Counted from the first letter of the stretch, positions 1,347 to 7,549 are shown. The stretch: DNA of 24,976 nt from a virus (IMGVR_UViG_2526164661_000007); one strand, 5' to 3'. The notes: generated by a model not told the origin, from the sequence alone. A program made the numbers and translations.

Positions 1347-2336
1347 GTGAGAGCACTACTGACCCCTGAAATTGCCCCGCGTATGGGGATCGTATTGTTC
1401 AGGCCAGGTTCAGAGCTGATGCCCCTGTTTATGCAGGGGCGTGTCCTGCTGGAGCCTGAGCCGGAACGTTATTCATCTTTTGCCAGTGGTGCCGTTCCGG
1501 CGGCATCACAACCGCTGGCGGATGATCCTGCCATTCGGGCCGTGTTCCGCAATGAGGCTGTGATCCGTCGGGCGGGGGGCGTGGAATGCCTTGAGAGCTG
1601 GTTACTTCGTGAAACAGGCTGCCAGTGGCCTCATTCCGGCTGGCACAGCGAGAATATGACCACAATGCGACACGCGCCGGGCGCAATCCGTCTGTGCTGG
1701 CACTGTGATAACCAGTTGCGCGATCAGTTCACGGAACGGCTGGAATCAATGGCAACGGATAACTGTGCCCGGTGGGTGTTATCTGTCGTGCGTCGGGATC
1801 TCGGTTTTGATGACAGTCACGTTGTGACAATGCCGGAACTGTGCTGGTGGCTGATTCGTAATGACCTGGCGGATGCCTTACCGGAAAGTGCAGCCCGTAA
1901 GGCACTGAGATTACCGAAGCCTGTTGTGCCGTCTGTTACCCGGGAAAGTGACCTTGTGCCTTCGGTTCCTGCCACCAGCATCATCCAGGATAAAGCGAAA
2001 AAGGTGCTGGCGCTGAAAGTGGATCCGGAGTCGCCGGAGTCTTTTATGTTACGCCCCAAACGTCGCCGCTGGGTTAATGAAAAGTACACGCGATGGGTTA
2101 AGACGCAGCCGTGCGCATGTTGTGGAAAACCTGCTGATGATCCCCACCACCTGACAGGTCACGGTCAGGGCGGAATGGGTACAAAAGCGCATGACCTCTT
2201 TGTGTTGCCTTTGTGCAGAAAGCATCACGACGAGCTGCATGCGGATACCGTGGCATTTGAAGAGAAGTATGGCTCCCAGCTTGAGCTGATATTTCGTTTT
2301 ATCGATCGCGCACTGGCGATTGGTGTGCTGGCCTGA
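1347..2336 (+). CDS. DUF968-family protein with C-terminal Cys/His (HNH-like zinc finger) motif
   Basis: ORF 1341-2336. C-terminus is [46 protein letters not shown] at 1347 is preceded by GAGGTGA; GTG 1341 and ATG 1381 are alternative starts. Sits before Q as in many lambdoid nin/late regions. Confidence 0.65.
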
Positions 2337-2353
2337 TTTTGTGGAGAAAGTTA

Positions 2354-2737
2354 ATGCGTGATATTCAGATGGTTCTTGAACGTTGGGGAGCGTGGGCGGC
2401 TAATAATCATGAAGATGTGACCTGGTCGTCCATTGCCGCCGGTTTTAAGGGATTAATTCCTTCAAAAGTAAAATCTCGCCCGCAATGTTGTGACGATGAC
2501 GCGATGATCATTTGCGGGTGCATGGCCCGTCTGAAAAAGAACAACAGCGATTTGCACGATTTATTAGTAGATTATTATGTAGTCGGTATGACATTCATGT
2601 CACTGGCAGGTAAGCATTGCTGCTCTGATGGTTATATCGGGAAAAGGTTACAGAAGGCTGAGGGCATAATTGAAGGGATGTTAATGGCATTAGATATCCG
2701 GTTAGAGATGGATATCGTTGTTAATAACTCTAATTAA
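2354..2737 (+). CDS. quuD: Late-gene antitermination protein Q, small QuuD-like family
   Basis: ATG at 2354 preceded by GGAG; 127 aa beginning [24 protein letters not shown], recognised from memory as the DLP12-type Q homologue. Cys-rich segment [12 protein letters not shown]. Confidence 0.8.
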
Positions 2738-2754
2738 TATGCCAATTGTTTACT

Positions 2755-2789
2755 AAAAATTATTAAAAATGGGGCGTTGAGACGCCCCC
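2755..2789 (-). terminator. Intrinsic terminator (GC stem plus T-tract on the - strand), distal end of the porin 3' hairpin cluster
   Basis: Stem GGGGCGT/ACGCCCC (2771-2788) with loop TGAG. On the - strand it is followed by ATTTTTAATAATTTTT (complement of 2751-2770). Confidence 0.5.
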
Positions 2790-2926
2790 AAAAATAAAGG
2801 GTAATATATAACAGAAGGTTTATATAGTTAGAAGCAAAGTTGTGCTTCTAAAGGAAGTGGCTTGAGGGAGCCACTTATATGTTGGGGAGGCAACGCCTCC
2901 CGCAACATATCTTTTTCGTAATCAGA

Positions 2927-4024
2927 TTAGAACTGGTAAACCAGACCTACAGCAACGATGTCATCAGTGCTTACACCGAGTGCTTTAGTGAAGTCATTTT
3001 TGTCAAGCAGGTTGATTTTGTAATCAACGAAAGTAGACATATTTTTGTTGAAGTAATAGGTTGCACCTACATCAACATATTTGACTAAGTCCTGATCGCC
3101 CCATACTCCAAGATCCTTACCTTTAGATTGCAGGTAAGCAACGGACGGACGCAGACCGAAATCGAACTGATATTGTGCAACAGCTTCGAAGTTTTGGGCT
3201 TTATTAGCAACGAAGTGATCAGCAAATACAGTCATATTCTGGGTTTCAGAATAGGTAGTGGCCAGGTAAATGTTGTTAGCGTCATATTTCAGACCTGCGG
3301 CCCAAACTTCTGCATTTTTACCGGAAGCAAATACTTCAGGAAGAACTTTCCCTGCATTAACTTGAGTGTCGGTACGATCAGATTTCGCATAAGTTGCACC
3401 GATACCGAATCCTTCGTATTCATAGGTAGCAGAGAAACCGAAGCCATCACCGTTACCTTCAGTGTAGTTATCGAAATCGCTACGATCGTTTTTGCCTTGG
3501 TACTGAGCAGCAAAGTTTAGACCATCAACCAGACCAAAGAAGTCGTTGTTACGATAGGTTGCAACACCAGTGGTGCGACCAGTCATGAACACATCTGTTT
3601 GGGTCCAGGTATCGCCACCGAATTCTGGCAGAACGTCAGTCCACGCACCGATGTCGTATGCTACACCGTAGTTACGGCCGTAATCGATTGAGCCGTAGTC
3701 ACCGAATTTCAGGCCTGCAAATGCAAGACGGGTTTTGTCTTTGGAGGAACCTTGAGATTCAGCGCGGTTGCCTTTGAATTCATATTCCCACTGACCGAAA
3801 CCAGTCAGTTGATCGTTGATTTGGGTTTCACCTTTGAAGCCAAGACGGGCATAAGTAGTATCACCATCATCTGCATCATTAGAGGAGAAGTAGTGCTTAG
3901 CATTAACTTTCCCGTACAGATCCAGCTTGTTACTGTCTTTATTATAAATTTCAGCTGCCTGAGCAGACATCGCCATCAGTACTGATGCAGCTACAGCAGA
4001 AATTGCCACTGTTAATTTTTTCAT
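2927..4024 (-). CDS. nmpC: Outer-membrane general porin, NmpC/Lc/OmpD family (prophage moron), apparently intact
   Basis: ORF 2927-4084 on the - strand; internal ATG at 4024 gives [23 protein letters not shown] signal peptide followed by [16 protein letters not shown]..., ending ...VGLVYQF (C-terminal Phe typical of beta-barrel porins). 365 aa. Confidence 0.9.
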
Positions 4025-4233
4025 CGTGAGCCCTTTTTTTGAACTATTATTAAAAAATGATGTCACTGCGCGATAAATATTCATCTAATCAATGTGATTA
4101 TTTCAAGATGTAAGTTTTGGTTTCTCGTTTGATTTGTGAAGTAGATCTCTATTTTTATCTGAACTTTTTTCTATCGAATCCTATTCATAGCTCTTTGCTG
4201 AATAAAAATAAATCTATTAGCCAATTTATATTA

Positions 4234-4262
4234 ACGACTGTTATTTATAAGCGCTCTATAAT
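4234..4262 (+). promoter_or_regulatory. Candidate sigma70 promoter (possible late promoter pR'): -35 ACGACT, 17-bp spacer, -10 TATAAT
   Basis: Perfect TATAAT at 4257-4262; weak -35 at 4234-4239; AT-rich upstream. About 190 nt upstream of the + strand terminator at 4452-4484. Confidence 0.3.
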
Positions 4263-4451
4263 TTGAAGGTTCAATTTAAATAAGCTAAAAATAACACTGG
4301 AAATAATTTGTTGGTTATTTGTTGAGATTTGCTTATGTATTTGTAGTGGTGTTTTCAATACTCGGTAGCATTCTCGCAAATATCATTTAGTGGTTTACGT
4401 ACGTAAAAAATTGGTTATGCTGTTAAGAGTGGTTACTTCGTCACACAGCTT

Positions 4452-4484
4452 AAACCCGCCGTCGAGCGGGTTTTTCCATTTTTT
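4452..4484 (+). terminator. Rho-independent terminator on the + strand (candidate tR')
   Basis: AAACCCGC-CGTCGA-GCGGGTTTTTCCATTTTTT: GC stem followed by two T-runs, about 115 nt upstream of the holin start. Confidence 0.6.
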
Positions 4485-4596
4485 GAGTCTCGATATTAGC
4501 TGATAACCCAATACCTGAGTTATTCACTGACTCCGAGTCTGTTACGTTTCGTAGTATTCCCTCAATTTACACCCGCTTTGTCTGCGAGGTGGGGTT

Positions 4597-4812
4597 ATGA
4601 AATCCATGGATAAGTTAACAACGGGTGTCGCCTATGGCACCTCAGCAGGTAGTGCCGGGTACTGGTTTTTACAGCTGCTAGATAAAGTCACGCCCTCACA
4701 GTGGGCGGCAATTGGAGTGCTGGGTAGCCTGGTATTTGGCCTGCTGACGTACCTGACAAACCTTTATTTCAAGATTAAAGAAGATAAGCGCAAGGCTGCG
4801 AGAGGTGAATAA
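4597..4812 (+). CDS. essD: Class II holin (pinholin, phage-21 S type) with dual-start motif
   Basis: 71 aa, [26 protein letters not shown]..., two TMDs. Met1-Lys-Ser-Met4 dual start. RBS GAGGTGGGG upstream. Confidence 0.9.
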
Positions 4813-5309
4813 TGTCGCCATCATTACGCAAGGCTGTAGCAGCTGCTATTGGTGGTGGGGCTGTTGCCATAGCGTCTGTGCTCATCACTGGTCCGAGTGG
4901 TGACGATGGTCTGGAAGGTGTCAGCTACATACCATATAAAGATATTGTTGGTGTATGGACTGTATGTCACGGGCATACAGGAAAAGACATCATGCTCGGT
5001 AAAACGTATACCAAAGCAGAATGCAAAGCACTCTTGAATAAAGACCTTGCCACTGTCGCCAGACAAATTAACCCGTACATCAAAGTCGATATACCGGAAA
5101 CAACGCGCGGCGCTTTTTACTCATTCGTTTACAACGTGGGTGCTGGCAATTTCAGAACATCGACGCTTCTTCGCAAAATAAACCAGGGCGATATCAAAGG
5201 CGCATGTGATCAGCTACGTCGCTGGACATATGCTGGCGGTAAGCAATGGAAAGGTCTCATGACTCGTCGTGAGATTGAGCGTGAAATCTGTTTGTGGGGT
5301 CAGCAATGA
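4812..5309 (+). CDS. rrrD: SAR (signal-anchor-release) endolysin, lysozyme, phage-21 R type
   Basis: 165 aa. N-terminal Gly/Ala-rich weakly hydrophobic SAR segment [20 protein letters not shown] followed by a lysozyme domain. Start overlaps the holin stop (TAATG). Confidence 0.9.
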
Positions 5310-6230: not shown

Positions 6231-6321
6231 TAGACTGGCCCCCTGAATCTCCAGACAACCAATATCACTTAAATAAGTGATAGTCTTAATACTAGTTTTT
6301 AGACTAGTCATTGGAGAGCAG

Positions 6322-6686
6322 ATGATTGATGTCTTAGGACCGGAGAAACGCAGACGGCGTACTACACAGGAAAAGATCGCTATTGTTCAGCAGAGTTTTG
6401 AACCGGGAATGACGGTCTCCCTTGTTGCCCGGCAACACGGTGTGGCAGCCAGCCAGTTATTTCTCTGGCGCAAGCAATACCAGGAGGGAAGTCTTACTGC
6501 TGTGGCCGCAGGAGAGCAGGTCGTTCCTGCCTCTGAACTTGCTGCTGCCATGAAGCAGATTAAAGAACTCCAGCGCCTGCTCGGCAAAAAACGATGGAAA
6601 ATGAACTCCTTAAAGAAGCCGTTGAATACGGGCGTGCAAAAAAGTGGATAGCGCACGCGCCCTTATTGCCCGGGGATGGGGAGTAA
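6322..6686 (+). pseudogene. insC: IS2 insC (OrfA), apparently frameshifted in an A-run (A6 at 6586-6591)
   Basis: ATG 6322 (frame 1) encodes [25 protein letters not shown]...LLGKK; the conserved InsC C-terminal part [31 protein letters not shown] (to TAA 6684-6686) is in frame 3. As sequenced, frame 1 stops at 6649-6651. Confidence 0.6.
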
Positions 6687-7549
6687 GCTTAGTCAGCCGT
6701 TGTCTCCGGGTGTCGCGTGCGCAGTTGCACGTAATTCTCAGACGAACCGATGACTGGAAAGATGGTCGCCGCAGCCGTCACTCAGATGATACGGATGTGC
6801 TTCTCCGTATACACCATGTTATCGGAGAGCTGCCCACGTATGGTTATCGTCGGGTATGGGCGCTGCTTCGCAGACAGGCCGAACTTGATGGTATGCCTGC
6901 GATCAATGCCAAACGTGTTTACCGGATCATGCGCCAGAATGCGCTGTTGCTTGAGCGAAAAACCGCTGTACCGCCATCGAAACGGGCACATACTGGCAAA
7001 GTGGCCGTGAAAGAAAGCAATCAACGATGGTGCTCTGACGGGTTCGAGTTCCGCTGTGATAACGGAGAAAAACTGCGAGTCACGTTCGCGCTGGACTGCT
7101 GTGACCGTGAGGCACTGCACTGGGCAGTCACTACGGGCGGCTTCGACAGTGAAACAGTACAGGACGTAATGCTGGGAGCGGTGGAACGCCGCTTCGGCAA
7201 CGAGCTTCCGGCGTCTCCAGTAGAGTGGCTGACGGATAATGGTTCATGCTACCGGGCTAATGAAACACGGCAGTTTGCCCGGATGTTGGGGCTTGAACCG
7301 AAGAACACGGCGGTGCGGAGTCCGGAGAGTAACGGCATAGCAGAGAGCTTCGTGAAAACGATAAAGCGTGACTACATCAGTATCATGCCTAAACCAGACG
7401 GGTTAACGGCAGCAAAGAACCTTGCAGAGGCGTTCGAGCATTATAACGAATGGCATCCGCATAGTGCACTGGGTTATCGCTCGCCACGGGAATATCTGCG
7501 GCAGCAGGCCAGTAATGGGTTAAGTGATAACAGGTATCTGGAAATATAG
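6644..7549 (+). CDS. insD: IS2 insD (OrfB, DDE transposase catalytic domain)
   Basis: 301 aa from GTG 6644, with DDE/integrase core. Normally made as InsCD fusion by -1 slippage at A6G (6638-6644). Confidence 0.85.

Follow-up and report, generated by a model that had tools for sequence, protein, structure and literature searches.

A late promoter and early terminator predicted between the porin and holin genes of a DLP12-type lambdoid prophage

The DNA analysed here (the window, 24,976 nt in full, from the virus IMGVR_UViG_2526164661_000007) includes the Q, porin, and lysis genes of a lambdoid prophage of the DLP12 type, and we found that positions 4394-4484 very probably act as the Q-dependent late regulatory cassette of this prophage. 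Judged from homology, the late promoter is most likely TTTACG-N16-TATGCT with a start near 4428, and it is followed by an early intrinsic terminator. A sequence-only reading of the same DNA had proposed a Q-responsive promoter/terminator unit between the porin gene and the holin. This proposal is supported, since the block at 4393-4475 is homologous to pR'/qut/tR' of 933W/Sp5 and always stands after a Q21-family Q. The reading had taken TATAAT at 4257-4262 for the promoter of the unit; this was not borne out, and the conserved TTTACG-N16-TATGCT, about 170 bases downstream, most likely stands in its place. The cassette is already known in kind and is essentially known for this DNA (DLP12, 933W). 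Only two points may be new relative to the literature searched: the covariation of a promoter dyad with Q, and the use of the Q-to-promoter gap as a slot for cargo.

Results

Gene order and prevalence of the region

The features of the region are as follows (window coordinates, strand where assigned, description, basis).

533-1339: KilA-N protein (ORF and Pfam)
1341-2336: DUF968/HNH protein (ORF and Pfam)
2354-2737, plus: Q antiterminator gene, QuuD type, 127 aa (Pfam PF06530, E 8.5e-54)
2760-2926, minus: structured 3'UTR of the porin mRNA (probable ipeX region), with a minus-strand terminator hairpin at 2771-2788
2927-4024, minus: porin gene, NmpC/Lc/OmpD-like (Pfam Porin_1, E 1e-156; NmpC/OmpD annotation in relatives)
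4025-4392, no strand: AT-rich porin upstream region, published as a 'promoter island', containing TATAAT 4257-4262 and sigmaE-like motifs
4394-4407, plus: dyad TTTACGT/ACGTAAA (slash at the centre), 14 bp, centre -27.5, overlapping the -35 hexamer; candidate Q-binding element
4394-4421, plus: predicted late promoter pR', -35 TTTACG 4394-4399, 16-nt spacer, -10 TATGCT 4416-4421 (homologous to the 933W pR' block)
4428-4451, plus: predicted start A4428 and conserved initial transcribed region AGTGGTTAC...GCTTA (aligned to the Sp5 PR' start)
4452-4484, plus: intrinsic terminator tR', stem 4452-4459/4466-4473, loop 4460-4465, U-run 4471-4475, second U-run 4479-4484
4597-4812, plus: S21-type holin (Pfam Phage_holin_2_1), ATG at 4597
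4812-5309, plus: SAR endolysin (Pfam Phage_lysozyme)
3' of the SAR endolysin: Rz/Rz1, then bor on the minus strand (ORF and Pfam)

The holin ATG at 4597 and the end of Q at 2737, about 1.5 kb upstream of the promoter proposed earlier, were both confirmed. From 4597 onward the lysis genes lie on the plus strand, the same strand as the promoter block (ORF and Pfam). The holin and the SAR endolysin are the first late genes served by the promoter/terminator unit and Rz/Rz1 come next; the holin and endolysin are likewise annotated in 434B, phage 21, and K-12.

Furthermore, the segment 2300-4850 has 98-99% identity to the temperate phages Kati, PhiR30_1, mEp332, and 434B, and the plaque-forming phages Kati, PhiR30_1, and mEp332 carry exactly this arrangement of Q, porin, and promoter block. 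The spacer 4025-4600 is 98.3% identical to the nmpC-essD spacer of the K-12 prophage DLP12 and was found in 2,662 of 5,426 complete Escherichia coli genomes (about half). Its best match among the complete genomes was E. coli O78:H51 strain APEC E19025 (NZ_CP126931.1), with 100% identity.

Two small ORFs were rejected as genes: one at 4117-4266, in the AT-rich spacer, and a 'hypothetical protein' of Kati (L002 3592-3705) over 4391-4504. They overlie the spacer and the promoter/terminator, respectively, and the Kati small-ORF annotations there are very likely artefacts. By eye, we also noted an IS2-like element of the IS3 family, whose two ORFs have 124 and 301 aa, at 6277-7549, downstream of bor, and a transposase-like fragment at the left end (130-513), and together these suggest a decaying prophage. 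In E. coli JM109 (L014), an IS5-associated deletion begins at the integrase of the prophage, stops shortly before the promoter block (equivalent of window 4387 onward), and leaves pR'-tR'-essD with neither Q nor porin.

Placement of the predicted late promoter

The Q protein of the window belongs to PF06530, the Q21/Q933W family (PMC9388147; bioRxiv 10.1101/651190), and the lambda-type family PF03589 was not matched in the Pfam search. The protein is 99% identical to K-12 QuuD and 78.6% identical to the Q of 933W-type Stx phages. When window 2300-4900 was compared with the Sakai Sp5 prophage by BlastN, two segments only matched, namely the Q gene and 4393-4475. The second segment aligned to positions 811-892 of L005, directly after Q in the Stx2a phage Sp5/933W, with 77% identity (E 3e-12). 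GenBank records of 933W label the homologous stretch as 'pR' putative late promoter', as 'qut', and as 'terminator / homologous to tR''.

The PR' start of Sp5 was determined by dRNA-seq in a previous study, together with a 3' end at 258 nt and an RNase E cut (GU/AUU) at +173 (Sy et al. 2020, PMC7547250). The coordinates of that study differ from the current RefSeq record by 142 nt, and with this offset the PR' start is A846 in L005, which stands 7 nt past TATCAT. Two further landmarks bear the offset out: it brings the 3' end (258 nt) to the final U of the second terminator and GU/AUU to exactly +173. Transferred to the window, the start becomes A4428, the terminator hairpin lies at +25 to +46, and the 3' end of the RNA lies near +48. 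The exact start A4428 and the RNA of about 48 nt are thus assigned by homology only and are to be taken as predictions. The equivalent of A4428 in K-12 DLP12 is position 577,229 of NC_000913.3, and the predicted 3' end near 4475 corresponds to about 577,276.

In addition, we scanned viral contigs for the core TGNTAAGAGTGGTTAC and obtained 120 loci, 98 of which have a complete upstream Q. In all 98, the Q gene lies upstream on the same strand, and the block always comes after a Q21-family Q. The -10 element at -12 to -7 is TAnnnT in all variants, with the three middle bases varying, and the core TGnTAAGAGTG, which straddles +1, is conserved in Q-anchored loci of many Enterobacterales. The mapped late promoters agree with part of the earlier proposal: the layouts of Sp5/933W and of phage 21 fit 4393-4475, but TATAAT at 4257 is without a match among them.

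The initial transcribed region 4428-4451 is presumed to be the region of pausing and Q loading. No -10-like pause element (TAnnnT) was found in +1 to +25 of the window; Sp5 has TACATT at +7 to +12, and this element is not conserved. The 3' ends mapped in the supplementary data of Adams et al. 2021 include none for essD, nmpC, or quuD.

The terminator and the terminated RNA

On the plus strand, a hairpin at 4452-4473 (AAACCCGC/GCGGGTTT, 8 bp with a 6-nt loop) is followed by TTCCATTTTTT. The terminator scan called 4452-4484 as a terminator, and the hairpin folds with -12 kcal/mol (z = -3.1). Among 47 distinct transcribed variants, 39 carry a perfect hairpin of at least 5 bp with a U-tail, in 24 different hairpin sequences; these lie at +25 to +63 in the relatives, and the estimated 3' ends are at +47 to +63 (median +49). 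Thus the feature is conserved and its sequence is not, which supports a function. For this count we used a per-sequence hairpin census, since the leader hairpins differ in length and were misaligned in MAFFT/RNAalifold of 31 leader variants. The strong plus-strand terminator of the sequence-only reading is therefore confirmed, and its identification with tR' is supported by the homologous 933W hairpin, which carries the tR' annotation.

The terminated RNA is predicted to end near 4475, and with a start at A4428 it would be about 48 nt long, as in phage 21, rather than the 190-215 nt or so of a lambda 6S-like RNA, which was the length expected earlier. The U-run of the window is only 5 long and is interrupted. 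In addition, the L016-type variant (11 loci) has GAGCTGG for GAGCGGG (equivalent of window 4466-4470), which makes a mismatch in the stem. The scan called no second terminator before the holin.

The corresponding stretch of Sp5 (L005 868-892, equal to window 4452-4475) looks like a canonical terminator, with a 7-bp GC-rich stem and 7 U at +25 to +50 of PR'. This first hairpin of the Stx phages lies within the 258-nt RNA detected by Term-seq (PMC7547250), so that either the stop there is leaky or an RNA of about 50 nt escaped detection. Rfam gave nothing relevant, either for the whole window at the gathering threshold or for 2650-4650 at an E-value threshold. The only Rfam hits, a sub-threshold Trp_leader at 4357-4479 and a snoRNA, were both taken as chance.

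The TATAAT at 4257 and the porin upstream region

The sequence-only reading was right that TATAAT (4257-4262), ACGACT (4234-4239), and the 17-bp spacer between them are all present. The interpretation built on them is that TATAAT, with a start near 4269, is the Q-responsive late promoter, and that a lambda-6S-like RNA of about 210 nt runs from it to the terminator at 4452-4484. We consider this very improbable. The hexamer is a perfect -10, on the correct strand and upstream of the terminator. Of 26 distinct porin-type spacers, 23 retain it, although the bases right beside it are variable. However, a lone TATAAT in this AT-rich spacer is expected by chance: in dinucleotide shuffles of 4025-4596, the probability of at least one TATAAT on the plus strand is 0.48, and the whole window has 3 copies of it against 4.7 expected. 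The -35 is weak and varies among the porin-type spacers, and the promoter scan did not call the TATAAT/ACGACT pair. Furthermore, the BlastN comparison of the window with Sakai Sp5 gave this site no homology to any mapped or annotated pR', and no dyad or Q-linked element lies beside it. In relatives with the same Q class and no porin insert, TATAAT is absent and only the block from about 4393 onward follows Q. The pairing of TATAAT 4257 with the terminator 4452-4484 as one unit is accordingly not supported. The nmpC/essD spacer is also known as an H-NS-bound 'promoter island' (PMC3661553), a setting with many promoter-like sites.

Given the conservation of the hexamer between variable flanks, TATAAT at 4257 may still have some local function. 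A related explanation is that TATAAT 4257, a sigmaE-type promoter near 4040-4073, or both are real Q-independent promoters beside the true pR', whose transcripts reach the terminator at 4452-4484 and provide the lysis cassette with a basal expression that responds to stress, of the kind reported for DLP12. PMC7918800 places the DLP12 lysis operon under control of a Q-type antiterminator, RpoE, and Hha, and uses a regulatory fragment of that operon described as '-121 to +650'. Its primers map to window 3952 and about 4722, so that the '+1', taken from Rueggeberg et al. 2015, would fall at about 4073. This reportedly RpoE-dependent start of the DLP12 literature, as implied by the fragment, would lie in the porin leader/promoter region, about 355 nt upstream of 4428. 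Just upstream of it are GAACT (4041-4045) and TCA (4063-4065) at sigmaE-like spacing, which could be read as a sigmaE promoter motif. Transcripts from such promoters would, however, meet tR' without having passed a Q-loading site at the right distance, and the H-NS binding and 'promoter island' status suggest mostly non-productive sites. Taken together, extra promoters of this kind are possible and somewhat unlikely; they may also feed the region, next to the predicted pR' at 4394-4421.

The stretch directly after Q

In lambda, phage 21, and 933W, pR' is usually found right after Q, and the AT-rich stretch at this place in the window does contain hexamer-like matches (TTGAGA 2775-2780 and TAATAT 2800-2805). 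If these were the late promoter, as the earlier reading had offered for an alternative, late transcription would run antisense through the porin gene. However, TTGAGA is the loop of a minus-strand terminator hairpin, which the terminator scan called at 2788-2771. The whole interval of 189 nt that separates the stop codons of Q and porin (2738-2926) is a hairpin-rich porin 3'UTR, with 4-5 strong hairpins (-65 kcal/mol). PMC12197685 describes ipeX as an RNA of 167 nt that arises within the porin transcript of DLP12, and 2760-2926 of the window probably corresponds to it. In the BlastN search against Sp5, the stretch had no counterpart in the post-Q sequence of Stx phages, whose Q is 79% identical, but 4393-4475 did. 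In addition, there is no core motif or dyad in the stretch just after the window Q. A late promoter here is barely credible, and we rejected it.

We also observed a long hairpin at about 2878-2910, followed by CTTTTTC on the plus strand. It might stop early rightward transcription as well, before such transcription enters the porin gene antisense.

The gap between Q and the promoter

The distance from the Q stop to the predicted start falls into two ranges, 5-51 nt in 37 of the 98 loci with complete Q and 631-3048 nt in the remaining 61. Most of the content of these long gaps (0.6-3 kb) is ORFs on the opposite strand, and they belong to many unrelated kinds. For instance, the cargo includes porins, a KAP NTPase (PADLOC PDC-S20), and Kiwa KwaB with a membrane partner, and also an OLD/Gabija-like ATPase with a methyltransferase-like neighbour, an NYN protein, an NA37 nucleoid-associated protein, and an esterase (loci L010, L019, L027, L037, L044, L070, L083, L099, and others). 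Thus the separation of Q from the promoter by counter-oriented cargo is common, and the porin of the window is one instance of it. The slot of the window is 2738-4392, and its gap from Q to the start is 1,691 nt. The porin gene (2927-4024, minus strand) lies between Q and the 4393-4475 block, which upholds the earlier statement that Q is separated from its site of action by an opposite-strand porin.

The dyad at -27.5 and the Q subtype

The dyad TTTACGT/ACGTAAA of the window spans -34 to -21. Across relatives its centre lies at a constant 15 nt upstream of the -10 (-27.5 or -28). At this centre, 89% of 45 distinct upstream sequences have arms of 4 bp or more that are perfectly inverted, and the same arm test at every other offset from -20 to +12 gave 0-2%. 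The arms fall into several classes: ACGT/ACGT (window), ACGA/TCGT (Stx), GCGT/ACGC, GCGG-n-CCGC, TTCGT-t-ACGAA, TGTTA/TAACA, TGGAA/TTCCA, and TGTCA/TGACA. In dyads of odd length, the central base is free (T, C, or G).

Clustered at 85% identity, the Q proteins of the 98 loci form 16 groups. None of these clusters contains more than one dyad class: 14 of the 16 have a single class, cluster 14 lacks a dyad at the fixed centre, and a variant with 3 bp occurs in cluster 0. By locus, an arm of at least 4 bp at the fixed centre is missing in 6 of the 98. The downstream sequence classes (+50 to +110) mix several dyad classes. One dyad class per Q cluster together with mixed downstream classes indicates that the dyad travels with Q rather than with the late genes, both where Q is next to it and where Q lies kilobases off. 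Along the wider set of about 140 related loci, we observed a dyad and then an A-run at a fixed position, in at least 8 classes that switch in step with the Q subtype.

A promoter-blind sample was also drawn, comprising 80 loci (one genome per species) taken by Q-protein similarity alone, with Q21 left out of the query alignment. The 13-nt core at 3 mismatches (Hamming) gave background-like matches, and a stricter pattern with the dyad test was used. In this sample, 76 loci had a length of 3 kb or more; TAnnnT-G-n-TAAGAGTG was found on the strand of Q in 45 of them, and the dyad is present in all 45, while the opposite-strand control found the pattern in only 1 locus. The Q-anchored loci include Xenorhabdus, Photorhabdus, Proteus, Providencia, Yersinia, Pantoea, and Serratia.

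From its fixed position and its covariation with the Q subtype, the dyad is likely the Q-binding element. The Q21 element is a direct repeat and not a dyad, so the dyad may have another role. A wider proposal is that it is the Q-binding element of the QuuD/Q933 branch, where inverted half-sites would bind a head-to-head Q pair, unlike the tandem pair of Q21, with at least 8 cognate Q/dyad specificity classes, and that the Q-to-pR' gap is a standard slot for counter-oriented cargo across Enterobacterales (porins, Kiwa, the KAP-NTPase system, and OLD-like ATPases). We regard this proposal as evenly balanced between right and wrong. The literature searched, whose coverage is incomplete, gave no paper on the dyad/Q covariation or on the Q-to-pR' cargo slot.

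Discussion

The cassette features present in the window are a Q-family gene upstream on the same strand, a homologous promoter, an early terminator, and late genes downstream. We propose that a sigma-70 promoter, TTTACG-N16-TATGCT, would initiate at about A4428. Without Q, polymerase would halt at the hairpin and U-run of 4452-4475 and free the RNA of about 48 nt, and the holin, endolysin, and spanin genes would stay silent. Once made from the early operon, Q (2354-2737) would bind the promoter DNA, most likely at the dyad, and load on polymerase in early elongation. The polymerase would then become resistant to the terminator, and the lysis genes and the late genes downstream would be transcribed. 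The analysis showed that the block is homologous to a mapped pR', that the -10 and the terminator feature are conserved, that the block is linked to Q, and that the dyad covaries with the Q subtype; for this phage we infer the exact start, the binding of Q at the dyad, the pausing, and the readthrough that depends on Q. Viable phages that use this module, 434B among them, lend indirect support to the readthrough. The 1.7 kb between Q and the promoter would be free for opposite-strand cargo because Q acts in trans on a DNA site. Here the cargo consists of the porin gene, the promoter region that belongs to it, and the 3'UTR/terminator that is probably ipeX.

The result corrects the annotation, with the late promoter, the predicted start, and the terminator placed to the base at 4394-4484. 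The same assignment applies to K-12 DLP12 (start 577,229) and to the roughly 2,600 other complete E. coli genomes that have the spacer. It is also relevant to toxin control in Stx phages, where the promoter is of the same type. If confirmed, a position-fixed dyad that tracks the Q subtype would be a Q-binding code, and the Q-to-pR' gap would be a recurrent slot for cargo and defence.

Comparison with known systems

In logic, the unit is like the pR'–6S RNA–tR' arrangement of lambda, which has a constitutive late promoter, an early intrinsic terminator, and Q readthrough into the lysis genes. The lambda Q belongs to PF03589, and its pR'-tR' RNA is 194 nt. Lambda therefore differs in having an unrelated Q family and a 194-nt RNA against the predicted 48 nt or so, and no sequence similarity is known. 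We rejected the identification with the lambda 6S unit, because the Q of the window is PF06530 and not PF03589 and the predicted RNA is much shorter.

Phage 21 has a Q of the same Pfam family, with pR' right after Q. Its QBE lies in the promoter between -35 and -10, and its terminator at +2 to +49 gives a very short RNA, as predicted for the window. In addition, the S21 holin/SAR endolysin cassette has 79% DNA identity to that of the window. However, the Q21 protein is only distantly related to the window Q. The Q21 element is a tandem direct repeat (ATTGAGCA AATGAGCA) at -28 to -13, whereas the window element is a dyad at -34 to -21, and phage 21 has a clear -10-like pause element at +2 to +8 where none is evident in the window. 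Q21 structures have been reported (Yin et al. 2019; Shi et al. 2019), and phage 21 is the structural model for the Q family of the window.

The Q933-type phages 933W/Sp5 are alike in the Q family, in the 78.6% identity of Q, and in the homologous promoter block. Their promoter is TTTACG-N16-TATCAT against TATGCT in the window, with a shared TTTACGn/nCGTAAA dyad and identical +1 to +9, and the first hairpin and U-run are homologous. In the Stx phages, however, the promoter overlaps the end of Q (22-nt gap), whereas the window has 1,691 nt across the porin. A second terminator at +258 defines the StxS RNA of the Stx phages, and the tRNA and stx genes come after it; the window has the first hairpin only, with the holin 112 nt after it. 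StxS is the Hfq-binding 3' part of the 258-nt PR'-tR' transcript (PMC7547250). The window unit was considered as an StxS small RNA and rejected, as only the first 47 nt or so are homologous and no second terminator precedes the holin.

Finally, DLP12 (qsr') of K-12, with the order quuD–nmpC–essD, and 434B are essentially the same DNA, with the same gene order and promoter block (spacer 98.3%, Q 99%). K-12 and 434B have IS5 inside the porin gene, which gives a gap of 2,890 nt, while the porin of the window is intact. In 434B, the same segment works in a plaque-forming phage.
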